From a virus (Duplodnaviria > Caudoviricetes): DNA of 56,111 bases. Shown one piece after another: positions 5,333 to 52,167 of the stretch. Location of the stretch: positions 1 to 56,111 of the IMG/VR virus record IMGVR_UViG_3300045996_001685. The stretch is one strand, 5' to 3'. The notes under the pieces were generated by a model. It made no database searches, had not been told where the DNA came from, and saw only the letters and a list, made by a program, of their open reading frames with translations. A program made the translations under genes and the position numbers. Every line of letters starts with the position of its first letter. Position 1 is the first letter of the stretch.

Positions 5333-6346
5333 ATGCCTATGATCGACATCTTCAACGACTCCGCCTTCAATGTCGTTAGCATGACGGCGGCGGTCAATGA
5401 CTTCGAGTATGTGCCCGGGCGCATCTCGCGTCTTGGGCTCTTTGACGAAGAGGGCGTGACCACGACCAGCGTTGCGGTCGAGCGGATGGGCGACGCCCTA
5501 GCGCTCGTGCCAGTCTCGCCGCGTGGTGGCGTGCCGCCCACGCCGCCCCGGGCGCGCGCCGCGCTGTATCCTGTCTCCGCCGCTCGGCTGGCGCTGCAGG
5601 ACTCAGTGGTTGCCGACGAGGTCCAGAACGTTCGCGCGTTTGGGACCGAGTCCACGCTCATGACGGTGCAGAGCTTGGTCAATCAGCGGCTCCGCAACAT
5701 GGCTCGCGCGTGCGACGTCACGCTCGAGTTTCACCGGCTCGGCGCTCTGAGGGGGCAGCTCCTCGACGCCAACGGCGTGAGCATCCTCGCCGACTATCAC
5801 ACGCTTTGGGGCGTGTCGGCTCAGTCGGTTGTGGATATGGACCTCGACGATGCAACCCCGGCATCGGGCGCGCTGATGGGTTCGTTTACGAGCATTCATC
5901 GGATGATTGAGGACGAGCTCGAGGGTATCCCGTACACCCGCATTCACGGGTTCGCGGGCAGCGCCTTCATGGATGCTCTGTATGCGCATCCCGAGTACCG
6001 GGACACGTTTCAGGCGGTGAATGCGGCGCAGCTTCGTGACCGGCAGATGCGGATTGCAGCATCGTTCGCTGGTTTTGAAATCGAGGAGTATCGCGGCACA
6101 GTCGGCGGCGTGCAGTTCGTCGCGGACGACGAGGCGATCTTCTTCCCGGTTGGCGCGCAGGGTGTCTATCGCACCTATTTCGCTCCGGCCGATTACCTCG
6201 AGACGGTCAACACCCTCGGGCTGCCCCGCTACGCCAAGATGGGCAGGCCGGACTCGTTCGACCGGCTGCAGCCCCTCGAGGTGCAGACTAACCCGATCAC
6301 GATCAACACTCGGCCCCGCGCCACCATCCGCGCCACGCTCACCTAG
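5333..6346 (+). CDS. Major capsid protein, lambda gpE family
   Basis: PGRISRLGLF, TLEFHRLGALRG, FAPAD..ETVNTLGLP, EVQTNP. Confidence 0.95.
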   Translation: MPMIDIFNDSAFNVVSMTAAVNDFEYVPGRISRLGLFDEEGVTTTSVAVERMGDALALVPVSPRGGVPPTPPRARAALYPVSAARLALQDSVVADEVQNVRAFGTESTLMTVQSLVNQRLRNMARACDVTLEFHRLGALRGQLLDANGVSILADYHTLWGVSAQSVVDMDLDDATPASGALMGSFTSIHRMIEDELEGIPYTRIHGFAGSAFMDALYAHPEYRDTFQAVNAAQLRDRQMRIAASFAGFEIEEYRGTVGGVQFVADDEAIFFPVGAQGVYRTYFAPADYLETVNTLGLPRYAKMGRPDSFDRLQPLEVQTNPITINTRPRATIRATLT

Positions 6347-6357
6347 TCGAGCGTATC

Positions 6358-6675
6358 GTGGGCGCGATTGCTTCGATGCACGACCGGCTCTTCTCCCATC
6401 CTGACTTTGCGGTTTCGGCCGTGGTGTACCGGGTGGGCGAGCCGGCGGGCGTCGAGGTACAGGCGATTTTAACTCGCCGGCGGGCCGAGTATGAAGGCTC
6501 GGGCGGCTTGGCTGTGGGGTGGCAAACCACGGCTGAAGTAAGACGGTCGGAGCTCGACGCGGTCAAACGATATGATCGGCTGACCGCGTCGGGCGCCACC
6601 TACGAAATTCGGGACGTGCCGGAGCTCGACGCCGACGGGGTGTGGCGGCTCGGGCTGGTCGAGCTGACGCAATAG
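6358..6675 (+). CDS. Head-tail joining protein (gpFII-like)
   Basis: 105 aa after capsid; beta-rich with D-x-L...Y-x-I...W pattern. Confidence 0.7.
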   Translation: MGAIASMHDRLFSHPDFAVSAVVYRVGEPAGVEVQAILTRRRAEYEGSGGLAVGWQTTAEVRRSELDAVKRYDRLTASGATYEIRDVPELDADGVWRLGLVELTQ

Positions 6676-19975: not shown

Positions 19976-21055
19976 GTGTCTAAGTTTCACGAGCTTGCTA
20001 GCCTCGACGTTAGGGCGGGAGACATCCTGCAGGTCGGCAAGAAACGCATCGTCAAAATCCCAAAGAGCGACGAAGAGCTCGCTTATTTGCTCAAGCTGCG
20101 CGTGGTCGAGGGGCAGGTGGTCGATCCCGTCGACCCAACAGACCCCGTCGATCCCACGGACCCGACCGACCCCGCCGAGCCCACTGATCCGCCTCCGATC
20201 GGCGAAGGCAAATGGATAGGCGGCGAAATCGGCGGCAAGGTCGAGGTCGACGGCAAGTCGATTGAGCGCAAGGTCGTCGAGGTTAAGGTCCAGACCAAGA
20301 CGCTGGAGAACCTAAAGCCTTGGACAGACTACGTTATCCGCCAGTTCGAGACTAAGACGAAACCCATTTGGTGGGATAACTCGCAAGCTATCCCCGAGGG
20401 GGCTCGGATACTCGGCGGCGAGGTGCTCGGCGTAAAGGTCGCCAAGGTCAGCGGCCACGCGGGTCACAACTCCATCCTCATCTACGTCAACGGCGGCAAA
20501 GGCGTTCGCCGCAACCGCCTCGTGGTGCAAGGGCTGAAATTTTCCCCCGAGTGTGAGGCGACGCTACTCGCCGAGTTCAAAGGCGGTTTCTTGGACCTCC
20601 ACGGATGGGAGATCGAGAAGGGCGCCAAGATCGGCAAATCGCGCCAGCGGCACGGCAGCTTTGTGCGTGTCAGCGGGATGCGTGGCGTCAAGGACTGGTC
20701 GTTCAGGGGCTCGGACCACCTGATCGTCGATTGCCCGGGGATGTCTGTCAAAACCTACTCCGGCAACCTCGCGCCAATCTACAAGCTCTGGAAAGAGGAG
20801 CACGTAGCGGGCAACGAGTCGAACATGCAGGCATCGCTCCGCATCTACGTCCTCGGCCCGTGCGGCGGCGTCGTGGTGGGACAGACAACTCGCCCGGACC
20901 TGCCAATCAAGTACAAGGCAGAGGACATCTACATTGAGCAGGGGATCGTGGTGCAGACCGATCCGAAGGGGACAGGTAGCATCAAGCGCGATGGCCTGCC
21001 CACCCTGAAAGAGTGGCTCGAGCGTCGCGAGTCTGCCAACCTCGCCGCACTGTAG
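19976..21055 (+). CDS. Protein with DPT linker and PL6-like beta-helix module
   Basis: SD AGGAGAG; DPVDPTDP repeat; EFK..RHG..RGSDH motifs shared with gpJ C-terminus. Confidence 0.7.
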   Translation: MSKFHELASLDVRAGDILQVGKKRIVKIPKSDEELAYLLKLRVVEGQVVDPVDPTDPVDPTDPTDPAEPTDPPPIGEGKWIGGEIGGKVEVDGKSIERKVVEVKVQTKTLENLKPWTDYVIRQFETKTKPIWWDNSQAIPEGARILGGEVLGVKVAKVSGHAGHNSILIYVNGGKGVRRNRLVVQGLKFSPECEATLLAEFKGGFLDLHGWEIEKGAKIGKSRQRHGSFVRVSGMRGVKDWSFRGSDHLIVDCPGMSVKTYSGNLAPIYKLWKEEHVAGNESNMQASLRIYVLGPCGGVVVGQTTRPDLPIKYKAEDIYIEQGIVVQTDPKGTGSIKRDGLPTLKEWLERRESANLAAL

Positions 21056-21066
21056 GAGCGCCCGCA

Positions 21067-22515
21067 ATGCCCGACTCCGTCCTCGACTTGGCCGCAGCGT
21101 TCCCGGGCTCCGGGGTAGCCACTATCGACAGCACCCCGGCCGTCCGGGAGGCGGAGCGGGCGTTTGCCGCCGGCCGCAGCGTGGCTTTCAACGGACCTGC
21201 GTGGGTGTTTGGCAACCCGTTGGTGCTCTCCGCCGAACGGTTCTCGGCCGAGAATGCCCCCCACGTCTCCGGCAACGGCGGAGGGGGGTCGTTCTTGATC
21301 CCTCTCCGCCCGGACCTGCCTACGGTCGTTATCGAGGGCGGGCAGAAGCTCAAAGGCAAGCGAGAGTGGTATGGCCATATCCACGACTTGGGCATCCTCC
21401 ACGCCATGCCGCCGCGCACGGACAAGGGTGAGAACCTGATAGACGCGTGGCTGAAGTCTAAGGACATTGGCGAGTATGCGACCGGGCTGCGCGGGCACCG
21501 GACCGCGCCCGGCATCGGAATCTACGTGCCGCCGGACGTGAGTCTGAATGCCGGCTCTTTTCGCAACCTCTGGCTTCTCACCAAAGGACCAGGGCTGTGG
21601 TTTAGGCACCATTCGTTTAGCTTCGTGATGGAGGGGATACAGGCTTGGTCGCACTGGGGGCCAAGCATGGCGTTCGGTGGCGGTATCGGAGCGCAAGCCG
21701 AGAACTGCTACGCCCGCGCGTGCGGTCCGGGCTGCGCCGGGTGGGAGGTGGTCGACTGGGCCGCGCTCAATGCCTGCAACGGGGTCGACGGGTTGAGCGG
21801 CTCGGATGCGTGGCTGATGGTCGGCGCTATCCAGCCTTTTCGCGCCAAGGTGCTTTCGGCCACTGAAACGACGGTGACCATTGACGGGACCCACGCGGAT
21901 ACGTGGCGCAAGTATCTGGCCGTCACCGTCGAGACTGGCGCGGCTGCTGACATCACCCGCCGGATTACAGCCAACAAAGGCGGCGCCTTGACCGTCCAAC
22001 GCCCGTGGCCGGGAGCAGTGCCTAAGGCGGGCGACTCCGTGTGGATACACTCCGAGCTCTCCGCCTATCACCCCGACGGCGGTTATCCCGACGGCTGGTG
22101 GTATAAGTCGGGACAGGTCGCGGTCGAGGACTCGAACATCGAGGACTGCGGAGACATTGGCGTCGTGACGCGCCGGCCGTCGTCGCTCGAGCTCCACAAC
22201 ATGCGCTGGTTCCCGAACGGCCGGCCGATGACGAGGTTTATGCAGCTCGCCGGCGGCGCTGGCGCGGAGTTGTGGCTGACGGGCAAGCACCACCTCGGCG
22301 GCCGCAAGCCGACCTCCCGGCGCTATATCGAGGTGCAGGGGACGATGGGCGTGCTCGGGCAGATGCTCCCGCCGGAGTTTCAGAAGTACCGGGACACTGT
22401 GGCGAACGTCGACGTCGCCATTGCAAACCAGACCGGCCGGGCGCTTGGCCTTATGAGCGCGGTTGCTCCCGAGCTCGTGGGTCCCGTCCGCCGCCACCTC
22501 CGCCGAGCGAGCTAG
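21067..22515 (+). CDS. Hypothetical beta-helix-like virion/tail protein
   Basis: SD AGGAG; Gly/Trp-rich beta pattern; tail context. Confidence 0.6.
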   Translation: MPDSVLDLAAAFPGSGVATIDSTPAVREAERAFAAGRSVAFNGPAWVFGNPLVLSAERFSAENAPHVSGNGGGGSFLIPLRPDLPTVVIEGGQKLKGKREWYGHIHDLGILHAMPPRTDKGENLIDAWLKSKDIGEYATGLRGHRTAPGIGIYVPPDVSLNAGSFRNLWLLTKGPGLWFRHHSFSFVMEGIQAWSHWGPSMAFGGGIGAQAENCYARACGPGCAGWEVVDWAALNACNGVDGLSGSDAWLMVGAIQPFRAKVLSATETTVTIDGTHADTWRKYLAVTVETGAAADITRRITANKGGALTVQRPWPGAVPKAGDSVWIHSELSAYHPDGGYPDGWWYKSGQVAVEDSNIEDCGDIGVVTRRPSSLELHNMRWFPNGRPMTRFMQLAGGAGAELWLTGKHHLGGRKPTSRRYIEVQGTMGVLGQMLPPEFQKYRDTVANVDVAIANQTGRALGLMSAVAPELVGPVRRHLRRAS

Positions 22516-22529
22516 CGGGAGAGCTCGGC

Positions 22530-36009: not shown

Positions 36010-36208
36010 GTGACAGCACTCCTCGGCCGAGCCGGGACACGCGCATGCGGAGCTTCTCTAGGTTCGTAGGTGGCACGAACTCCACGACCGGCTCGACCAG
36101 CCGGATCGTAACGGGTCGTGGCTTAGGCTCGATGCGATCGGGCAGCAACCCGGCCGCCTCCGCATCCCGCAAGAGCTCCTCGACGCGTGGATTTGCGCTG
36201 GTGGTCAT
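36002..36208 (-). CDS. Hypothetical protein
   Basis: ATGA overlap with recT stop. Confidence 0.55.
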   Translation of the reverse strand: MTTSANPRVEELLRDAEAAGLLPDRIEPKPRPVTIRLVEPVVEFVPPTNLEKLRMRVSRLGRGVLSRD

Positions 36209-37218
36209 TGTCCAGGGGTCCCGTTGATGAGGTGGTCGAGCATGTTCTCTACCCACACGGCCGGCTGGCCGATGCGCGCGAACTGGTCCCGGTTGTGGTC
36301 GAGGTACTGCTGCAGGACGGCCGGGCTTTGCTCGTATCTGGCGAATAGCGTCCGCCACATACCTCCCCACTCGTCGAGTGAGGCGCACAACCGTGCTTGC
36401 CACTGTTTGTTACTCCAGATGACAATGGGGTATCCGCCCGGGTCGTCGAGACCGTCGAGCGGGTCGGCTTTGCCGTCGAGCGTCCGTGAGTCGTCGGTGT
36501 GGTCCTCGACGAGCAACGCCCCATCCTGGCGGAGGTAGGAGTGGCGGCCGATCTCCTCGAATGTGGTGTCAACGGCTGCGGCCCGCTGAAAGTCGACCAC
36601 GAGGGGCAGGTGGCGGGCGAGCCGGCGCTTTGCGGTCTTGGCGCACATGGCCGGAAACCCGATCGTGGGATCGTTCCACGGACTATCGGATTTGCGAGCG
36701 CCGGGGCTCTTGTTCTTCACAGCCAGAAGTTCGTCGCGGTCTAGCACGACCACGATCGGCGAGCGGCCGGGAGCGATGGCAGACGCCCACGCCGCGAATA
36801 TCGCACGGTCAGCGCCCGCGCCGAGCGCCTTCTTGTGCTCCACGAAAGGCTGCGTCCCGTCGCTGAAGTCGAAGCGGTCGCCCTCCCGCACGACATCGCC
36901 GGTCAGGGTCAACCCCGCACGATGCGCGAGGGTGTTAAACCCTCGAGCTCCGATAAGTGGCTGCGCCTTGCCACCGAATGGCAGAAGGTATGCCTGCCCG
37001 GTAGCGCCGTCGACCTCTAGTCCGAGAACGGCGAACGTGTTTGCGGCCATGACAATGCTAGTCATGGTGCATTCACGCAGCTTGGGCGTGCGCTCGATAC
37101 TAATTAGTATCGTCTGCAACAGCCTCTCCGGGGTTAGCTTGGTATTGGCCAGCATATCCCGCCAGCCGGGCAGCATCGGCTCGAAAGCACGCTCGTATGC
37201 AACTAGGTCAGTGCTCAA
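36205..37218 (-). CDS. recT: RecT-family single-strand annealing protein
   Basis: PKLRECT..S, LGLE...GQAYLLPF, VVREGDRF, SPW....MCAKTAKRRLAR.LP. Confidence 0.95.
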   Translation of the reverse strand: MSTDLVAYERAFEPMLPGWRDMLANTKLTPERLLQTILISIERTPKLRECTMTSIVMAANTFAVLGLEVDGATGQAYLLPFGGKAQPLIGARGFNTLAHRAGLTLTGDVVREGDRFDFSDGTQPFVEHKKALGAGADRAIFAAWASAIAPGRSPIVVVLDRDELLAVKNKSPGARKSDSPWNDPTIGFPAMCAKTAKRRLARHLPLVVDFQRAAAVDTTFEEIGRHSYLRQDGALLVEDHTDDSRTLDGKADPLDGLDDPGGYPIVIWSNKQWQARLCASLDEWGGMWRTLFARYEQSPAVLQQYLDHNRDQFARIGQPAVWVENMLDHLINGTPGQ

Positions 37219-38147
37219 ACTCGGTACTCCGGCACCGGCGGTGCGTCGTAGATGACGCCCTCAGGGTGCGGTTTGAGGGTGATTTTCTTGCGGAGGTGCG
37301 CCTTGCGCGTGGTTTGCTGCTCGTCCATCGGGGTTTTTGTGACCCTGACGCGGTGCGACGCTGTGATGATCTCCGGGGCGCGGGCGGCGAGAATGACAGC
37401 CTCCGCGGCCTCCGCGACCGCCTTGGCTTGCCGCAGCATCGTCCTCGCCGTCTCCAGGTCCGCACACGCTTGAGCGAGGACGTGGTCGCCGGTGGCGTCG
37501 AGCGGAGGCGCTCCAGGCTCCGGTACGGGCAGCAACTCGAGTAACACGGGGTTGTCTCGCCCGCCCTCGTGAGGAGGTGGCCGGCGCTCCTCGACCTCGG
37601 CCCAGAACGTCCGGAGCTCGCGCTCGAAAGCAGAGTGGACACGAGGGTTGGGGTCACGGAGGAGGACGGGAGCGAGCTCGTTACCGCCGACCAGCGTGGC
37701 AATCCCGCCCCACGTGGCCCCTGTTACCCATAGCTGGTGCTGAACCTGCAGCTCGACGTCCAGCGGTGGCTTGCCGCCCGCCCACGCACCCCATTGCCAC
37801 TCCGCGCGATCTACGCACTTGGTTTCGAGTACGCCGAGCCCGCGCTCGTGGCGGAGGATGAGTGCGTCGACCGTGGCGCCGGTCCGGAGCGTCGAGTCAG
37901 GGTGCTCTAGCCAGTTGTCGGCCTCATTCGACTCGATCTCCCACCCCTCCCGCCGGGCAACCTCGGCGGTAATGAGGGGCTGGAGAAGCCGCCCCCACCT
38001 CATCCGGTCGTCCTCGTGGTGGTCGAGGGAGGCGCCGGTGACGAAGTGGTGCCAGAGCTGGAGACGGGTGTGGTAGCGCGACTTGCCGAACAACCCCGCG
38101 ATCATGCTCGAGCCTATTTTGCCTTTGCGGGCGGGCGATAGGGTCAC
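37215..38147 (-). CDS. YqaJ / lambda-exonuclease-like recombination nuclease
   Basis: IGSS, WGRLLQP, ATVDA..LETK, QVQHQLWVTG. Confidence 0.92.
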   Translation of the reverse strand: MTLSPARKGKIGSSMIAGLFGKSRYHTRLQLWHHFVTGASLDHHEDDRMRWGRLLQPLITAEVARREGWEIESNEADNWLEHPDSTLRTGATVDALILRHERGLGVLETKCVDRAEWQWGAWAGGKPPLDVELQVQHQLWVTGATWGGIATLVGGNELAPVLLRDPNPRVHSAFERELRTFWAEVEERRPPPHEGGRDNPVLLELLPVPEPGAPPLDATGDHVLAQACADLETARTMLRQAKAVAEAAEAVILAARAPEIITASHRVRVTKTPMDEQQTTRKAHLRKKITLKPHPEGVIYDAPPVPEYRV

Positions 38148-43229: not shown

Positions 43230-43718
43230 GTGTCCGATACTGTGATAGGGTCGCCCGCCTACCTAAGGGCACTCCAGCGGGCACGGCGGCACCTCGACGC
43301 CACCGCACCACCGAAGAAGGGAAACCCGATGAACGGCCACGACAAGCTTTTGCTCGTGGGGATGGTCCAAGAGCTGCAGGAACTCGACGAGCGCCGGCGG
43401 GAGCTGAGCCAACAGAAGTCGGAGATTATGCGCAACGCGGTCGACCGCGGCTTTAGTCGCGCGGCACTGCGTGAGGTGCTCCGGCGCATGAAGATGGACG
43501 CAGCCGACCGCGAAGACCACGAGCACCTCGTCGACGAGTACATGCTCGCGCTGGGCATGACTCCCCTCGAGCTCGAAATCGAGCGCGACCGGCAGGCTGC
43601 GGAGGCTACGGTTAGAGTTGAGGCAGCGGTCGAGGAGCACGCCCCTAAGCCGCCAGTGGCGAGCCGGAGCCGGCGCAAGCCGGACACGGAGCCGGTCGCC
43701 GCCTCCTCCCTCAACTGA
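43230..43718 (+). CDS. gapR: GapR (DUF2312) nucleoid-associated protein homolog; alternative start 43329
   Basis: ELQELDERRRELSQQKSEI..RGF....LREVL..KMD..DREDHE.LVDEY..ALGM. Confidence 0.8.
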   Translation: MSDTVIGSPAYLRALQRARRHLDATAPPKKGNPMNGHDKLLLVGMVQELQELDERRRELSQQKSEIMRNAVDRGFSRAALREVLRRMKMDAADREDHEHLVDEYMLALGMTPLELEIERDRQAAEATVRVEAAVEEHAPKPPVASRSRRKPDTEPVAASSLN

Positions 43719-43743: not shown

Positions 43744-44244
43744 ATGCCGGAGCGGGCGATGGCGCTAGACCTCGGCTCTCGCGGGGTGGGTTGGGCATGG
43801 GAGAATCAATCGGGGCAAATCAGGCTCGACAGGTTCGACCGCCTTCCCGTGCCCGCCCGGCATTTCGCTATGTGCGACCTGCTCAGCGTGCGGTTGACGG
43901 ATTGGGTGTGCCAGTGCCGCCCGGACGTCGTCGTGGTCGAAAAACCCTTCTTCTCGCGGGCGACCCCGACCGCTGGCGTCGTGCTCTATCAACTCCTCGG
44001 CGCTGCCGGGGTCGTTCTGATCCGTCACCAAGTCCGCGCCGAACTCGCTTCGATATTCGACTGGCAAGCGTGGGCCAAGGAACGCGGCTGGACAAAGACC
44101 AAGGGCGACGACGCGAACGACGCTCAGTGGATACTCAAGTGGTGGGAGGACGGCGCACCTAGGCGTCCGAAGTCCCCTATGAAACGCAAAGCGAAGAAGC
44201 CGGCCGCATCCCGCGCGCCGGTCCTGCCTCTAATGGGAGTGTAG
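43744..44244 (+). CDS. RuvC-like Holliday junction resolvase
   Basis: ALDLGSRGVGWA, PDVVVVEKP, DDANDA. Confidence 0.8.
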   Translation: MPERAMALDLGSRGVGWAWENQSGQIRLDRFDRLPVPARHFAMCDLLSVRLTDWVCQCRPDVVVVEKPFFSRATPTAGVVLYQLLGAAGVVLIRHQVRAELASIFDWQAWAKERGWTKTKGDDANDAQWILKWWEDGAPRRPKSPMKRKAKKPAASRAPVLPLMGV

Positions 44245-45817: not shown

Positions 45818-46030
45818 ATGAAACTACCCACTGAGTTTCGGTTGCTGCGGCCAGACGAGTACGCAGAGAGCACCCTGCAAGTCTATCTAACCGTGCCCGT
45901 CCGGGACGACGAGGGGTGCTGGAGTGCCTATCCGGTCGCCGCGGCAGACATGCCGCTCGGGACCCGCGACGAGCTCGTGCGGCTGGCCACGGAGCGCGCC
46001 CGGGCGGCCGGCAGGAAGGTGAGCGGATGA
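45818..46030 (+). CDS. Hypothetical protein
   Basis: MKLPTEFR; coupled to methylase. Confidence 0.6.
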   Translation: MKLPTEFRLLRPDEYAESTLQVYLTVPVRDDEGCWSAYPVAAADMPLGTRDELVRLATERARAAGRKVSG

Positions 46031-46584
46031 GGTACAGGGTCGTCTATGCTGACCCACCATGGACGTTCGCTACCTACTCGGCCAAGGGCAAAGGCAAGAG
46101 CCCGGAGCGGCACTACCAGTGCCTCACCCTCCCCGAAATCAAGGCGCTGCCCGTCGCCGAGCTCGCGGCCGACGATTGCGCCTTGTTTCTGTGGGTGACC
46201 ATGCCGACGCTGCCGCAAGGGCTCGAGGTTATCCGGTCGTGGGGGTTTACCTACAAATCCCGGGCGTTCTGCTGGGCCAAGCTCACCAGAACCGGCAAGC
46301 AATGGCATTTTGGGTGCGGTTACTCGACCCGCAAGAACCCCGAGGATTGCCTGCTAGCCACGCGTGGCCGACCGCGCGTGCTCGACCGGGGGGTGCCCGA
46401 GCTCATCGTGGCGCCCGTGCGGGAGCACAGCCGCAAGCCCGACGAAGCGCGCCAGCGTATCGAGCGGCTCTTCGCCGGGCCGCGCGTGGAGCTCTTCGCC
46501 CGCCAGCGCTGGCCGGGTTGGGAGGTGAGGATGTCCGATCAGCCCGAGCACTTCGCAGAAGTAACGAACCAAGCAACCCTTTAA
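46027..46584 (+). CDS. MT-A70 family N6-adenine methyltransferase
   Basis: YADPPW, LFLW, WGF.YK, EHSRKP, ELFAR..PGW. Confidence 0.95.
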   Translation: MRYRVVYADPPWTFATYSAKGKGKSPERHYQCLTLPEIKALPVAELAADDCALFLWVTMPTLPQGLEVIRSWGFTYKSRAFCWAKLTRTGKQWHFGCGYSTRKNPEDCLLATRGRPRVLDRGVPELIVAPVREHSRKPDEARQRIERLFAGPRVELFARQRWPGWEVRMSDQPEHFAEVTNQATL

Positions 46585-46605: not shown

Positions 46606-47157
46606 TTGAACGTACAACCATCCGAGAAAACAAAATCCACGCTTAAGTGCATCCTCGCGTCCACCGATTGGCGCGTGATTGCGGCGTCGATCCCTGACCG
46701 ACTGCCCGTGGAGCCGGAGCCGGAGCCGGTCGTGAGGACCGCGCCGGCCTTTCGCATCCGGACGCGCAAGAAGCCGGGCGAGGTGCAAAACGCGTTCATC
46801 GCGGCGCTGAAGCACGGGCCACTAACCCGGGTGGAGCTCGCCGCAGCGACCGGGCACGACGCCTCACGTATCGGCTCGACCATCCGCTGGTCGCTCCGCA
46901 ACGGCACCATTCATATCCTCCGGGACGGGCGCTTCGCGCTGAGCGGGCTTGAAGCTCCGCCGCGCAAGCTGCTGCCACTCGGGCGAGTCATGGAGCTGAT
47001 CCTCGAGGCGGTCGGCGACCGTCCTGTGCTGTGGCGCGAGCTGCGCGACCAAATTGACGCCGCCGAGGGGACGCTTAACCGCGCGCTGGCTAGTCTGTGC
47101 CGACGTCAGCTTATCCAGCGCATCGCGCTCGGCACCTATCAGAGGGTAGGGGCGTGA
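46606..47157 (+). CDS. Tandem winged-helix DNA-binding protein
   Basis: GPLTRVELAAATG and WRELR..GTLNRALASL..IQRIALGTY. Confidence 0.65.
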   Translation: MNVQPSEKTKSTLKCILASTDWRVIAASIPDRLPVEPEPEPVVRTAPAFRIRTRKKPGEVQNAFIAALKHGPLTRVELAAATGHDASRIGSTIRWSLRNGTIHILRDGRFALSGLEAPPRKLLPLGRVMELILEAVGDRPVLWRELRDQIDAAEGTLNRALASLCRRQLIQRIALGTYQRVGA

Positions 47158-47762: not shown

Positions 47763-48752
47763 ATGAGCACTCCCGCACTGATTTTCTTTCAGGCTGACAC
47801 CCTGGCACGACCGCCGCGCCTCCTCCAAAATCGCGCGCACGTTGAGACGCTGCCGTTTGACGGGCTCGTGATCAACATCCCGGCTTCCTATACCGTGTCG
47901 CGAGCGTCAACGCGGCTCGACTATGCCGACACTCGGCGTTGGCTGACGCTCGACGGGATGTACTCAAAGCTTAATCAAAGCTACCTTCTAGCCTACACCG
48001 CCCACGAGGAGTCGCCCCCGGATGTGTTCGACTCCCAAGAGCGGTTAATCACCAACTGGCGGTTGCTGGCGCGAGCAGCTCGAGAAGCCGGGATGCGTGG
48101 GCTGTTTGTCGATAACGAACCATACGACACCCGCGCCCTCGAGTTCCCCGACGGCGCGCGGTGGCCGGAGTTCGGTCTGGCTCGGTATCAGCGGCAAGCC
48201 CGGTCGGTCGGGAGGTGGGTAATGGACGGCATACTCAAGGAGTGGCCTGAGGCACATGTTATCGTCGCCCATGGGCCGTATGTGAGCGAGCCAAAGACAC
48301 CCCGCGAGGTCTCGCTCCTGCAAGTCGAGACAACCCCGTATGACCTTCGCGGGCACTGGTTCTCGGGGATGGCGCAAGCATCGGGTAACGGTCAGCTGGT
48401 CGACGGAGGCGAGGTCTACCAGTACCGGACACGCGAGGACTTTGTGCGCTCGAGGCAGTGGCGGGAGACCGGGTTGCCTCAAGTCCCGTCTAGCACGGTC
48501 GTGCCTTCCCCGCTGCGTCGGACGTGGCGGGACCGGGTGTCGATCGGGTTTGGCGTCTACGATCGGCCGTGGAAGGCCGGCTACGAGATGAACCCGGAGG
48601 TGCTCGAAACCACGCTCACCAACGCGCTGGCCGTCGCTGAGGACGTGGTGTGGCTGTACACTGACGGCTCCGGAGGCGGGCGTTACCTCGACCCGCTGAC
48701 GGTCGACTCGGCGTATGTTGATGTCGTGCGTCGAGCGCGCGGCGCTGGCTGA
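47763..48752 (+). CDS. Putative TIM-barrel glycoside-hydrolase-like protein
   Basis: LPFDGLVI, GMRGLFVDNEPY, LVDGGE.Y, VVWLY alternating beta/alpha pattern. Confidence 0.55.
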   Translation: MSTPALIFFQADTLARPPRLLQNRAHVETLPFDGLVINIPASYTVSRASTRLDYADTRRWLTLDGMYSKLNQSYLLAYTAHEESPPDVFDSQERLITNWRLLARAAREAGMRGLFVDNEPYDTRALEFPDGARWPEFGLARYQRQARSVGRWVMDGILKEWPEAHVIVAHGPYVSEPKTPREVSLLQVETTPYDLRGHWFSGMAQASGNGQLVDGGEVYQYRTREDFVRSRQWRETGLPQVPSSTVVPSPLRRTWRDRVSIGFGVYDRPWKAGYEMNPEVLETTLTNALAVAEDVVWLYTDGSGGGRYLDPLTVDSAYVDVVRRARGAG

Positions 48753-48763
48753 AAGGAACAAGG

Positions 48764-49462
48764 ATGAACGAAGTCACCAACCTGCCCCTATTCGACTATG
48801 CCCAGCTTGAACCGAAGGCTCGAGCGGTCGCCCAAGAGGCCGCCGGCATTATCCGGCTTCACGGCAAGCGGGCGGCTGAAAGCATCTTTGAGATAGGCCG
48901 GCAGCTGCTGCGCGTTAGAAAGGCTTTTGAGGAGCGAGGCGAGGAGGTTTTCTTGGCATGGCTTGACCATGAATTTAGGTGGAAGAAGTCGAGCGCATAT
49001 AACTTCATGAATGTAGCGGATAGGCTGCCAGATGACTTCCAACGGTTGGAAGTCGATGCGGGCGCTCTTTACCTCCTTTCGACTAAGGCGGCCGAGCCGG
49101 CTCGGGACGCTGCCCTGGCGATGGCGCGGGAGGGCAAACGCGTCACGCACGCGACCGTCAAGGACATCATCGAGGGAGTCAGGAAGCAAGCCGCCGAGAC
49201 GTTCAAGCCGCCGGCCGACGCTTCCCCTCCCGCCGAACGGCCCGGACCGGACCCGGTTAGGGTCGCCAACTTCGAGACCTCGGCGGCCTTGAACGGAAGG
49301 TTCCGCGATTTTCGGGGGTTGGTGTCCAGACCGCCCGCAGAGGTGGCGCTGACCATCGACCCCATTCTCAGGCGAGGGCAATCCGAACTCGCCTACACCC
49401 TGGCGCGCTGGCTCGACGAGCTCGTGGCCGAACTGGAGAAGCTTGATGACCAAGCAGCCTAA
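48764..49462 (+). CDS. DUF3102-domain protein
   Basis: FDYAQL, SIFEIGRQL, FLAWL..EF....SAYNFM.VA, ALYLL. Confidence 0.8.
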   Translation: MNEVTNLPLFDYAQLEPKARAVAQEAAGIIRLHGKRAAESIFEIGRQLLRVRKAFEERGEEVFLAWLDHEFRWKKSSAYNFMNVADRLPDDFQRLEVDAGALYLLSTKAAEPARDAALAMAREGKRVTHATVKDIIEGVRKQAAETFKPPADASPPAERPGPDPVRVANFETSAALNGRFRDFRGLVSRPPAEVALTIDPILRRGQSELAYTLARWLDELVAELEKLDDQAA

Positions 49463-49916
49463 CCTCTCGACCCTGGTCCGGGAGCTTATCGAGAAGATGC
49501 TCGCAAAGGGTCCGGTCAACACTGACGACTTTGCGCACACGTTCACCCAAGAGTACCCCCAGTTTGTCGAGGAGCATTCGTTCCAGCTAGGGCTGAACGC
49601 AATCAAGAAGGCGTTTCGCGACCTGATTAAGCAGACCTTGCCTCAGGAGCAGGGCAATCTATACGAGTACTTCGGAGAGTCTCTCCCGCGGGCGTTGGCA
49701 GTGCCTCGTCGTGGCACTGACGAACCCTATTATGTGGCCACGGAGAACGCCACGGGTGCGGAGGCCGACGCGGCGCTGATGCTGTTAGACCTGAACGTCA
49801 CGGCCGTAATCGCCCGCCGAGACGCGGTCGCGAAGCTTATCGAGGTTTTCCGGCAGCGTGGCGGAAGGGACCACGACCGGCTTGCGGACGTGCTTCGCCC
49901 CAAGGTCGATGCCTGA
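49446..49916 (+). CDS. Hypothetical protein
   Basis: Overlaps DUF3102 gene end; SD GGAG. Confidence 0.65.
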   Translation: MTKQPNLSTLVRELIEKMLAKGPVNTDDFAHTFTQEYPQFVEEHSFQLGLNAIKKAFRDLIKQTLPQEQGNLYEYFGESLPRALAVPRRGTDEPYYVATENATGAEADAALMLLDLNVTAVIARRDAVAKLIEVFRQRGGRDHDRLADVLRPKVDA

Positions 49917-50141
49917 ACTGGACAGCCCTTGGCGGATGGCGTAAGCCTTGAGTCCGCTCCGAAACGGAGTGCGGCCCGGAGCTGGCAACCCCGGGCCGCG
50001 GCCGAACCTGTGTAGAGCAGGAGAGGCACACAAGGCGCTTGGATTGGCCAAGCGCGGACAACCGCCTAAGGAGAGTTAGGCGCGACAACAGCCTAAGGAG
50101 AGTTAGGCCAATGACCTTGTACGGCTTTCGTTCTGTTCTGG
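49917..50141 (+). ncRNA. Candidate structured cis-regulatory RNA upstream of replication initiator
   Basis: Multiple nested stems, GNRA loop and two identical 18 nt hairpins. Confidence 0.5.
50064..50108. repeat. Two identical 18-mers GCCTAA-GGAGAG-TTAGGC, 27 bp period
   Basis: 50064-50081 and 50091-50108. Confidence 0.95.
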
Positions 50142-50170
50142 CAACCCACCCCGTCGCGGGGTGCGCGTGA
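50111..50170 (+). CDS. 19 aa leader peptide coupled to the initiator gene
   Basis: MTLYGFRSVLATHPVAGCA; SD AGGAGAG; TGATG overlap with ATG 50170. Confidence 0.55.
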   Translation: MTLYGFRSVLATHPVAGCA

Positions 50171-51060
50171 TGGCGCGCCTTGCTTGGTACAAGCGGTATC
50201 CTAAAGATTTTCGCGAAGGGACCCGGAGGCTGTCCTTCGAGGAGCGCGGATTTTACTCCGACGTGCTCGACTTGATTTACGAGCACGGTAACGAACTCCC
50301 GGACGACGACTCCGCCAACGCCCACATGCTCCACGCCGACGTCCGCACCTACCGGCGGCTCAAAGCTCGCCTGATGGACGTCCACAAGAAGCTCTACGTG
50401 GCCCACGGGATGCTCCGAAACAGCCGGGCTGACGCCGAAGCTGCGGCTGTATCTTCCCGGAGATCGGGCGGGAAACCCCCCGGAGCTCCGGCAACATACT
50501 CCCCGGAGCTCCGGCAACAATGTTTGCCGAAGTCGGGTCCGGAATCGGGGAAATTCAACGGCATACCCGTTTCGTCCGCGCAACTCGACTCACGCGCGCG
50601 CGCGCGTCAGAATCCAGATAAGACAGATAAGACAGAGATAGAGTCTCTATTACCCCCCCCTGAGTCTCGTGACTCACGCGCTGGCGCGCGCGAGGAGGTG
50701 GGGGGGGATGAAAACGCAAGAGCGGCTGTTGCCGAACTCGTCGCTCACCTCGCACCCCGAGGCTACTACGACCACCAAGTGGCCAAGGCCGTTGAAGGCT
50801 GGCTTGCGTTGGCACCCTCGTGGTGGGTGCTGCACAAGGTTCGAACCGCCGCCGCCGAAAAGACGATACAATGGCCGCTGCAATGGCTCGCTAAACAGGT
50901 CGAGCTCCGCGTCGACGAGGAAGCCCGCCGAGCGGCCGGACACGGCCCTAACGAACTCCCCGAATCCACCATCGCCGAAATCGAAGCTCGAATGGCCTAC
51001 GTGGCTGAAGCTATCCGACAAGAGCAACTCGCAACAATGGAGGCTAAAGGAAATGCCTAG
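50170..51060 (+). CDS. Replication initiator, DUF1376/YdaU family
   Basis: WYKRYPKDF..GT..LSFEERGFY..LDLIY; internal iterons. Confidence 0.88.
   Translation: MARLAWYKRYPKDFREGTRRLSFEERGFYSDVLDLIYEHGNELPDDDSANAHMLHADVRTYRRLKARLMDVHKKLYVAHGMLRNSRADAEAAAVSSRRSGGKPPGAPATYSPELRQQCLPKSGPESGKFNGIPVSSAQLDSRARARQNPDKTDKTEIESLLPPPESRDSRAGAREEVGGDENARAAVAELVAHLAPRGYYDHQVAKAVEGWLALAPSWWVLHKVRTAAAEKTIQWPLQWLAKQVELRVDEEARRAAGHGPNELPESTIAEIEARMAYVAEAIRQEQLATMEAKGNA
50455..50710. repeat. Putative replication origin (iterons plus A-rich repeats)
   Basis: CCCCGGAGCTCCGGCAACA at 50478 and 50501, degenerate copy at 50455 (23 bp period); CAGATAAGA x2; GACTCACGCGC x2. Confidence 0.75.
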
Positions 51061-51646
51061 CTCACTCGACCACACGACACAGTTTCTCAAGATGCTGCGC
51101 GTCAACACCCGACGGAATAAGGACACCACCGACGCGCAGCAGCAAGAGCAACTCACGGCGTGGGCTGCGGAACTCTGCAAATACGACGCAAACGACGTTA
51201 CACGAGCTATCACCGTGTGGAAGGATACCCAAGAATGGTGGCCGTCGTCTTGGAAGCAGCTTAAAGAGGCCGTTGAAGCCGCCCGCGACGGACGCAGAGC
51301 CCAAAACGCTACCGAACGCCCGCCCGCCGAACTCACCCTCTCCGACGCCGCAAACATCGCGTTCGGCTTCTTGGGCAACCCCCACCTCCGCGAGTTCGAT
51401 CGCCGCCACAACCGCGCAGCGCTGGTCCGGGCGCTGGCCGAGTGGACCCTCCCGCAAGCCCGCCTGTTCGCCCAAGCCACCGGCACCGACGCTCGAACGG
51501 CCGCCATGCAAGCCGTTACAGCCGAGGCGGAGCGCCTGCTCGGCAAAACCGCTGGCCAAATCTGCCGAGAAGAAACCGAGGCGCGCGGCGAACCACTCGC
51601 ACCTGTGCCAGGGTTTAACCGCATCCCGGATGAGGTGCGGCTGTGA
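51053..51646 (+). CDS. Helicase loader/inhibitor-like replication protein
   Basis: Follows initiator; W...L..Y....V..AI..W....WWPS pattern. Confidence 0.6.
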   Translation: MPSSLDHTTQFLKMLRVNTRRNKDTTDAQQQEQLTAWAAELCKYDANDVTRAITVWKDTQEWWPSSWKQLKEAVEAARDGRRAQNATERPPAELTLSDAANIAFGFLGNPHLREFDRRHNRAALVRALAEWTLPQARLFAQATGTDARTAAMQAVTAEAERLLGKTAGQICREETEARGEPLAPVPGFNRIPDEVRL

Positions 51647-52167
51647 TTGCCACCGAAACCTATCGGTGCGAATGCGGAGCCCAGATTACTATCTCGGGCG
51701 ACCTGCAAAACTCAGGCGGTATAGCTCGCGGTATGGCGCTGGGCGGCTGGTCGCTTGTGAACGGTAGGTGGACCTGCCCGCAAGGAGCTGGAGGACACCA
51801 GCCCACCCCAGTCGAGCAGATCGGACCCAACACCCTCGCCGACCGCCTCGAGGTCGCAACCTCCTATCGGGAACTGCTGCAACTCGGTTGGGACGCCGCC
51901 CGGGTGCTGCGGGACGAACCCGACTCGACGGACGATGAGATCGAGTTTACGCTCGACGGCAATCCCGCGATGGATCTTAACGCATGCAAACTGCTGTATG
52001 AATCCAGCCTGCCGGGGTTGTGCGCCGAGCTGATGCTGTCCGTACCAGGACCGCCCCACTCGCAGTTTGTTCGCGTCTGTCGGCCGGGAGGCTGGTGTGC
52101 AACGGGGCAGCACAAAGACGAGATTTGCGCCGCGTGGCTCGCCGCTATGCTGAGGGCGAAAGCATGA
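51643..52167 (+). CDS. Hypothetical protein with N-terminal Zn ribbon
   Basis: CECG..GW..WTCP. Confidence 0.6.
   Translation: MIATETYRCECGAQITISGDLQNSGGIARGMALGGWSLVNGRWTCPQGAGGHQPTPVEQIGPNTLADRLEVATSYRELLQLGWDAARVLRDEPDSTDDEIEFTLDGNPAMDLNACKLLYESSLPGLCAELMLSVPGPPHSQFVRVCRPGGWCATGQHKDEICAAWLAAMLRAKA

Follow-up and report, generated by a model that had tools for sequence, protein, structure and literature searches.

A 19-codon leader open reading frame and twin palindromes ahead of a DUF1376 gene in a soil phage: predicted anatomy and possible translational coupling

In the virus record IMGVR_UViG_3300045996_001685 (Duplodnaviria; Caudoviricetes), a gene of the DUF1376 (YdaU-like) family is preceded by a 253-nt gap that holds two identical palindromes and a 19-codon open reading frame (ORF), whose stop codon overlaps the start codon of the gene. 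The window analysed here is the complete IMG/VR virus record, a linear sequence of 56,111 bp with a GC content of 64.5% and a completeness of 78% (CheckV). The locus is part of a long run of plus-strand genes. Gene starts that overlap the preceding gene are widespread in this phage, as judged from its ORF list, and a non-coding gap of 253 nt is unusual in such tight packing. A sequence-only reading of this stretch had proposed that the gap is a structured leader, in which a translationally coupled leader peptide controls the replication initiator, gated by RNA structure as in plasmid R1 and the IncI plasmids. The features of the locus are as follows.

49446–49916, plus strand: upstream gene of 156 aa, from ATG 49446 (TTG 49443 is an alternative start) to TGA 49914–49916; GC content at third codon positions (GC3) 0.76; PHROG 36009 (function unknown).
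49917–50169, plus strand: the gap, called the leader below; 253 nt, 63.6% GC.
50057–50081, unstranded: tandem repeat copy 1, with hairpin 1 at 50064–50081 (7 bp when the pair C50063–G50082 is included, loop GGAGAG, −9.1 kcal/mol).
50084–50108, unstranded: tandem repeat copy 2, with hairpin 2 at 50091–50108 (loop GGAGAG at 50097–50102, −7.7 kcal/mol).
50111–50170, plus strand: leader ORF, from ATG 50111 to TGA 50168–50170; 19 codons plus stop, sharing one base with ATG 50170 in the sequence TGATG.
50148–50183, plus strand: structured initiator start, with two predicted alternative folds and an opening energy of 25.3 kcal/mol.
50170–51060, plus strand: DUF1376 (YdaU-like) gene, starting at ATG 50170; Pfam PF07120, PHROG 9327.

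The DUF1376 gene matches PF07120 with an E value of 3.2e-12 (47.1 bits, cut-off 30.1), its sole Pfam match, and PHROG 9327, annotated as ‘primosomal protein’, with an E value of 5.5e-14. By this homology its product is a putative replication initiator or primosomal protein, and the gene is referred to below as the initiator gene. The choice of ATG 50170 as its start agrees with 10 aligned relatives, which begin 3–6 residues ahead of an invariant W, the same as here. As had been stated before, the gap itself contains no long ORF; the longest is of 43 aa.

For the leader ORF, the layout described by the sequence-only reading is exactly present. Its Shine-Dalgarno (SD) sequence, GGAGAG at 50097–50102, forms the loop of palindrome copy 2 and lies 8 nt ahead of ATG 50111, while its TGA overlaps the initiator ATG. 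How often would such a layout arise by chance? The leader was dinucleotide-shuffled 5000 times, and each shuffle was screened for upstream ORFs of 8 codons or more whose stop overlaps the ATG. A stop-overlapping upstream ORF appeared in 405 of these shuffles, one with an SD in 107, and one with both SD and ATG in 13, so that the layout is improbable by chance. GGAGAG is a real and favoured ribosome-binding motif of this phage: the plus strand carries 17 copies, nine of which, that of the leader ORF included, are followed by a start codon 3–8 nt downstream, and the clear gene starts that use it include those at 19976 and 46606. Three of the 17 copies lie in 50020–50102.

The initiator start is built differently. 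As had been claimed, the gene lacks a strong SD of its own: GGAG, GAGG and AGGA are all absent from the 20 nt 5′ of ATG 50170, where only GGGG is found. The accessibility of starts was compared through the opening energy, defined as the cost of unfolding positions −20 to +13 around the start in a 180-nt context, for 32 starts (30 other gene starts, the leader ORF and the initiator gene). With 25.3 kcal/mol the initiator start is the most closed (rank 1 of 32), whereas the leader ORF start ranks 13th with 14.6 kcal/mol, almost the average of all 32 (about 14.5 kcal/mol). Of 400 random positions, with a mean of 17.9 kcal/mol, 294 need as much energy as the leader ORF start, or more, to open. On these energies the leader ORF start, predicted to be open, resembles an ordinary gene start; the initiator start, predicted to be closed, does not. 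Lacking an SD and being the most closed of the 32, the initiator start would therefore need some help for translation.

Two alternative folds are predicted for the initiator start. In the first, the hairpins ACCCCG-UCG-CGGGGU and GCGCGU-GAUG-GCGCGC (50148–50178) jointly contribute −19.8 kcal/mol; in the second, a single 11-bp hairpin spans 50156–50183 with the loop GUGAUG. Both place the GGGG within a stem and the AUG in a small loop. Because the hairpins lie inside or abut the leader ORF, a ribosome that reaches the leader stop would have to open them. The predicted anatomy at the initiator start is thus that expected of coupling to a leader ORF.

We infer such coupling, and any regulation of it, in the following form. 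The DUF1376 gene would be translated mainly by coupling to the 19-codon leader ORF, a proposal to which we give a little less than an even chance. Ribosomes would load at the leader ORF by way of its SD GGAGAG, which palindrome copy 2 holds in its loop or in a contested arm. Translation as far as the UGA at 50168–50170 would unwind the GC-rich hairpins that bury the weak GGGG and flank the initiator AUG, and termination on UGAUG would be followed by restart at AUG 50170, or by its exposure. Because ribosomes reach AUG 50170 via the leader ORF in this model, the output of initiator would be set by the frequency of initiation at the leader ORF. The twin palindromes would be the likely control point. 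They might act as DNA operators, or else as RNA hairpins that show or hide the SD or are bound by an antisense RNA or a dimeric RNA-binding factor. The leader-peptide half of the earlier proposal is supported in silico by the combination of SD, ATG and TGATG, by the ordinary leader start and by the closed initiator start devoid of an SD.

The palindromes are two identical 18-mers, GCCTAAGGAGAGTTAGGC (GCCTAA-GGAGAG-TTAGGC), at 50064–50081 and 50091–50108. They had been described as twin hairpins with SD-like loops, and their presence is beyond chance: a search of the 56 kb on both strands with up to 3 mismatches returns 2 matches against 0.02 expected, and none of 100 shuffles returned two or more. 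Both are embedded in a 25-nt direct repeat, 96% identical (24/25) and with a spacing of 27 nt, in which the flank GACAAC and the non-palindromic spacer GGAGAG are also identical between the copies; 2 flank bases differ. The predicted pair probability of hairpin 1 is 0.48–0.84. At the leader start two structures nearly tie. Hairpins 1 and 2 together, with the SD in a loop and the AUG free, give −17.5 kcal/mol (hairpin 2 has a probability of 0.20–0.44), and an alternative pairing of 50098–50105 with 50112–50118, which hides both the SD and the AUG of the leader ORF, gives −19.3 kcal/mol with a probability of about 0.4; the gap of 1.8 kcal/mol is within the error of the energy model.

Two further palindromic sites lie elsewhere in the window. 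The perfect palindrome GGAGAG-TC-TCTCCC at 49674–49687, inside the 156-aa gene, has a CUCUCC arm complementary to the GGAGAG loops 400 nt downstream, a complementarity that is probably due to chance. A second SD lying partly in a hairpin loop before a start is found in cgagct-AGCGGGAG-agctcg at 22508–22527, followed by ATG 22530, which ranks third for closure among the 32 starts (21.5 kcal/mol).

Several points weigh against translational coupling as the explanation. All structure evidence is nearest-neighbour prediction on a single sequence, and the set of 32 starts was hand-picked by ORF, GC3 and SD criteria. Because 23 of the 400 random positions match or exceed the closure of the initiator start, this closure alone is only a top-6% event. 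The probabilities of the initiator hairpins vary with the folding context (0.10–0.36), as does that of hairpin 2 (0.17–0.44). Against shuffles, the z score for folding of the leader is −2.55 for the plus strand, equalled by 3 of 200 shuffles, and −3.00 for the minus strand, equalled by 1 of 200. The leader thus shows no strand preference; ranked with GC correction among the phage's own 254-nt windows, it comes 37th of 440 on the plus strand and 26th of 440 on the minus strand, and its foldability is unremarkable within the phage. Copy 1 provides an SD with no start codon after it, a feature that coupling leaves unaccounted for. The leader ORF peptide, used as a protein query in its 43-aa frame across the repeats, has no homologue, and the exact 18-mer occurs neither in viral contigs nor in genome contigs (0 in each). 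None of seven distant DUF1376 genes with readable 5′ context has a leader of at least 200 nt, and a leader with twin palindromes appears, so far and among the sequences compared, to be unique to this record.

The near-identity of the copies and the SD without start codon in copy 1 also make a neutral history a live alternative. The hairpins might derive from a recent neutral duplication of 27 bp in an ordinary ribosome-binding segment, the other stems from the background of 64% GC, and the short ORF from operon overlap or chance. Copies that are 24/25 identical with 2 differing flank bases are what a young duplication would leave, and a leader that folds within the normal range of the phage, many of whose 10–13-mers recur elsewhere in it by chance, is consistent with this history. 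The same holds for hairpins with an SD in the loop, which are about equally frequent on each strand (12 distinct on the plus strand, 16 on the minus strand), and for the failure to find a relative with this element in viral or genome contigs. However, only 13 of 5000 shuffles reproduce the ORF layout, the initiator start combines the lack of an SD with the highest closure of the 32, and 253 non-coding nucleotides are out of keeping with a tightly packed operon; a neutral origin is considered unlikely.

Do the palindromes act as RNA or as DNA? It is possible, if somewhat unlikely, that they are DNA operators bound by a dimeric DNA-binding protein (the upstream gene product, another phage regulator or the initiator itself), which would keep a promoter in the gap repressed or prevent read-through into the replication genes. 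Their arms are perfect, with 6+6 Watson-Crick pairs around a 6-bp spacer, 18 bp in total, and the copies lie 27 bp apart centre to centre. An 18-bp palindrome of this geometry is usual for helix-turn-helix dimers. The stems contain no G-U pairs, and since perfect palindromic stems fold equally on both strands, the operator reading fits them equally well; the motif is also found nowhere else in the 56 kb. The hairpin look and the SD-like spacer would then be secondary. However, no promoter-like site scoring at least 9/12 was found in 48500–51500. The operator reading also gives no reason for the copies to agree in the spacer GGAGAG and the flank GACAAC as well, or for that spacer to be a favoured SD at working distance from an ATG. 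Two points speak for RNA: the non-palindromic spacer is an SD of the phage itself, and the ATG that follows it at 8 nt begins an ORF finishing exactly at the initiator start.

Candidate proteins for such a role are encoded nearby. For the upstream 156-aa protein, 13 relatives were found among cluster representatives; Pfam and PDB sequence searches gave no match, and its family alignment (A3) gave 80 pattern matches and no relative. The rows of its Atlas structure model point to PadR/BlaI-type regulators with template modelling (TM) scores of 0.36–0.40, flagged as under the bar, making it a weak candidate for a winged-helix regulator, a lead without sequence support. A MarR-like winged-helix protein is encoded at 46606–47157 (PF25213, E 3.6e-08, 33.6 bits against a cut-off of 35; MarR_2, E 0.00053). 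In R1, a repressor gene lies directly upstream of the leader ORF and initiator (PMC5717011), and operators could coexist with coupling, as CopB/PrepA does with tap-repA. The RNA and DNA readings of the palindromes both fit, and they could be layers of one circuit if the winged-helix lead held. In a layered circuit of this kind, the upstream product or an antisense RNA with a CUCUCC loop would act on the twin hairpins and set translation of the leader ORF, which would be the only route of ribosomes to the initiator. This combination is distinctly unlikely.

A different protein partner is suggested by the sequence AAGGA at the top of both hairpins. A CsrA dimer bridges a pair of GGA hairpins separated by 10–63 nt. 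Here the two sites are 27 nt apart, within the range of a CsrA target, with site 2 on the leader SD, and the twin hairpins might thus be a two-site target of a CsrA/Rsm-type or other dimeric RNA-binding repressor, through which host physiology would gate initiator synthesis. The consensus for CsrA places the GGA in the loop centre, whereas here it occupies loop positions 1–3. The record, 78% complete, contains no match to CsrA (PF02599) or ProQ (PF04352) at E ≤ 1, and the Caulobacter control genome gave no CsrA signal; the host is probably an alphaproteobacterium. There is a precedent in the ProQ/FinO-type protein PcnR, which binds the first stem-loop of the IncI2 leader-peptide mRNA (PMC8053102). 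Even so, a target of this type is highly improbable.

Lastly, palindromic repeats adjoining an initiator gene recall origin iterons, which the DUF1376 protein might bind. Lambda O binds palindromic iterons. In the leader, however, there are only two copies, without an adjoining AT-rich stretch and unrelated in sequence to the repeats inside the gene, and because a much better origin candidate lies within the DUF1376 gene, we regard leader iterons as very improbable. That candidate occupies the linker between the conserved N-terminal domain and the variable C-terminal part (50453–50700) and looks like a lambda-type origin. Three repeats with a spacing of 23 bp, holding the 12-bp palindrome CCGGAGCTCCGG, cover 50453–50515; after them, a stretch that is richer in AT and contains two copies of CAGATAAGA lies between GACTCACGCGC/(CG)n tracts, which are at 50587 and 50671. 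Five GANTC sites in 50587–50675 form the densest cluster of the window, the next best having three, and the region gives the strongest minus-strand folds of the phage (z −3.0, −2.85 and −2.37).

Beyond the palindromes, the gap holds two further inverted repeats.

49971–49999, unstranded: 9-bp GC-rich inverted repeat GCGGCCCGG/CCGGGCCGC; its loop is 11 nt long and no T-run follows; −19.7 kcal/mol, probability 0.94–1.0.
50035–50055, unstranded: 8-bp perfect inverted repeat GCGCTTGG/CCAAGCGC, with the loop ATTGG; −13.2 kcal/mol, probability 0.88–1.0.

The first of these may be a terminator without its U-tract or a protein site. The sequence-only reading had listed many stems in the leader, and this held for part of them. 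Under two local-folding settings, the 9-bp repeat, CCTG/CAGG (0.69–0.99) and GGC-GTAA-GCC (0.39–0.87) are well predicted, but the closing and long-range stems are low (≤ 0.01 for GGACAG/CTGTTC and 0.03–0.43 for ACAAGG/CCTTGT); GCGGA/TCCGC reaches 0.07–0.26. The pairing of ATTGGCC (50043) with GGCCAAT, put forward as a competitor of hairpin 2, has a predicted probability of at most 0.01, and differs from the alternative pairing found here at the leader start. ATTGG is the loop of the stable hairpin at 50035–50055, which was missing from the earlier list of stems, and it is complementary to CCAAT at 50108–50112 over 5 nt only. As TTGGCCAA is itself palindromic, the supposed complementarity of ATTGGCC and GGCCAAT amounts to a direct repeat of 6–7 nt.

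The leader yields no Rfam family at gathering score; the 2 matches with E ≤ 10 in 49000–51000 both lie outside the leader and are sub-gathering. Neither a promoter-like site (at least 9/12) nor a terminator-like site was found on either strand of the gap, the promoter type of the host being unidentified. An IncI-type pseudoknot was also rejected, because no hairpin loop is complementary by at least 6 nt to the zone of the initiator ribosome-binding site (RBS), and only 5-nt matches containing G-U pairs occur in 50125–50185. An RNA switch gated as in R1 or IncI, the other half of the sequence-only reading, is thus unsupported, lacking a competitor pairing above 0.01, a pseudoknot partner, a promoter- or terminator-like site and an Rfam match. 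The core of the earlier observation is real, and its outer parts were overstated.

Two other candidates in the leader were set aside. The 10-mer CTGGCAACCC occurs in the window only at 49982–49991, in the loop of the 9-bp hairpin, and at 50138–50147, just before the initiator hairpins; it was dropped as a significant repeat because the leader shares dozens of 10–13-mers with the rest of the phage by chance. The 43-aa ORF from TTG 50039 was rejected as a real gene, its SD being 13 nt distant and its TTG falling in an arm of the 8-bp hairpin.

How does the locus compare with its relatives? The initiator protein has 10 protein relatives, with 47–75% identity over 29–67% of the query; the N-terminal domain falls within the aligned part, and two of the relatives are encoded on contigs of 49.7 and 59.3 kb. 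A DNA search of 48700–51700 against phages gave no match, nor did searches of viral contigs with the initiator protein or with the neighbouring proteins. The initiator alignment (A1) recovered 2 loci in viral contigs (42–44% identity) and 2 in metagenome contigs (35–38%), and none in genome contigs. The nearest cultured DUF1376 matches come from phages of Sinorhizobium and Agrobacterium (3 phages in 6 records, 31–33% identity), and tblastn matches on plasmids come from 2 records, of Pseudochrobactrum and Azospirillum (39–41% identity). The starts of the seven distant DUF1376 genes with readable 5′ context are arranged as follows.

L002, L003 (upstream ORF of 59 aa), L004 (upstream ORF of 72 aa), Atu_ph08 and phiLM21: start overlapping the stop of the upstream ORF.
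PBC5: start after a gap of 31 nt.
L005: start after a gap of about 125 nt.

With five of the seven showing such an overlap, coupling to a preceding ORF appears to be the usual state of the DUF1376 family, though it is common among phage genes generally. The present locus shares this overlap with the family. Differently from ordinary coupling to a full-size gene, the partner here is a 19-codon ORF in a 253-nt gap with duplicated palindromes that carry an SD in the loop.

Among plasmid systems, repR-repA of IncI2 is the closest in logic. In pHNSHP45, RepA synthesis requires RepR, a leader peptide of 19 aa whose reading frame overlaps the start of repA; two factors, an antisense RNA and PcnR (a ProQ/FinO protein), act on the leader mRNA at its first stem-loop (PMC8053102). 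Both loci have a 19-codon leader ORF overlapping the initiator start and a stem-loop at the leader start. In contrast to IncI2, the system here belongs to a phage, its initiator is a DUF1376 protein and not a plasmid RepA, and the hairpin is duplicated; no ProQ/FinO gene is found (PF04352, E ≤ 1, in the 78%-complete record), and no antisense unit is visible, as the minus strand of the gap has no promoter-like or terminator-like site.

The tap-repA genes of R1 use the same leader-peptide coupling as IncI2, and the gene order of copB-tap-repA in R1 (IncFII) could match the present one: an upstream gene, a control region, a short leader ORF and a coupled initiator (PMC5717011). However, no part is homologous, a CopA-type antisense RNA has no trace of a promoter here, and the upstream gene as a repressor is a weak lead. 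With repY-repZ of IncI1 and repB-repA of IncB, the locus has in common a leader ORF that ends at the initiator start and an initiator RBS in predicted structure, but the only all-Watson-Crick loop match of 5 nt (AUUGG/CCAAU) falls at the start of the leader ORF, not of the initiator. Homology of the initiator to plasmid RepA or RepZ was not found, DUF1376 being the only Pfam match and ‘primosomal protein’ the PHROG annotation. With moderate confidence, the locus would work like these plasmid systems at the coupling step; it is a member of none of them.

DUF1376/YdaU genes are common in phage and prophage replication modules, and the literature searched contains only incidental mentions of the family; to our knowledge, the regulation of no initiator of this family has been studied. 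If the leader ORF gates the initiator, the control logic of IncF and IncI plasmids would extend to a phage initiator of an unrelated family, in a compact, testable model of one ATG, one overlap and two hairpins. In the layered reading, a form of replication control in the style of plasmid copy number would be carried by a non-integrating soil phage. As had been noted before, the phage has no integrase match (PF00589), and no ParB match (PF02195) was found either, both in a record that is 78% complete; for such a phage, replication-level control could bear on persistence. Should the palindromes be operators instead, the locus would be a replication operon under ordinary repressor control, and the small ORF would be incidental.

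Parts of 49443–51060 are present in 6 soil metagenome runs, with no RNA run among the holders listed. In 4 of the soil runs compared, the short contigs are identical and none covers 49821–50144. The host is probably an alphaproteobacterium, because the phage encodes a GapR-domain protein at 43230–43718, its nearest DUF1376 matches are those given above, and it carries the GANTC cluster.

The remaining genes around the locus and further features of the record are given below.

48764–49462, plus strand: gene whose DUF3102 match, at 18.4 bits, falls short of the cut-off (24.4).
51053 (ATG) and 51643 (GTG), plus strand: starts of the overlapping downstream genes.

The window contains no tRNA or tmRNA gene. 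Its early region encodes a RecT/YqaJ recombination pair on the minus strand (36205–38147) and three proteins on the plus strand, namely a protein with a GapR-like DNA-binding domain (43230–43718), a RuvC-like resolvase (43744–44244) and a DNA methyltransferase (45916–46584). The most structured stretch of the phage lies far from the locus, at 6340–6620 on the plus strand, just 3′ of the likely capsid gene and within or adjoining the ORF 6358–6675; it folds with −144.8 kcal/mol at a z score of −5.13 (0 of 200 shuffles as good), and with −4.61 in a sliding scan.

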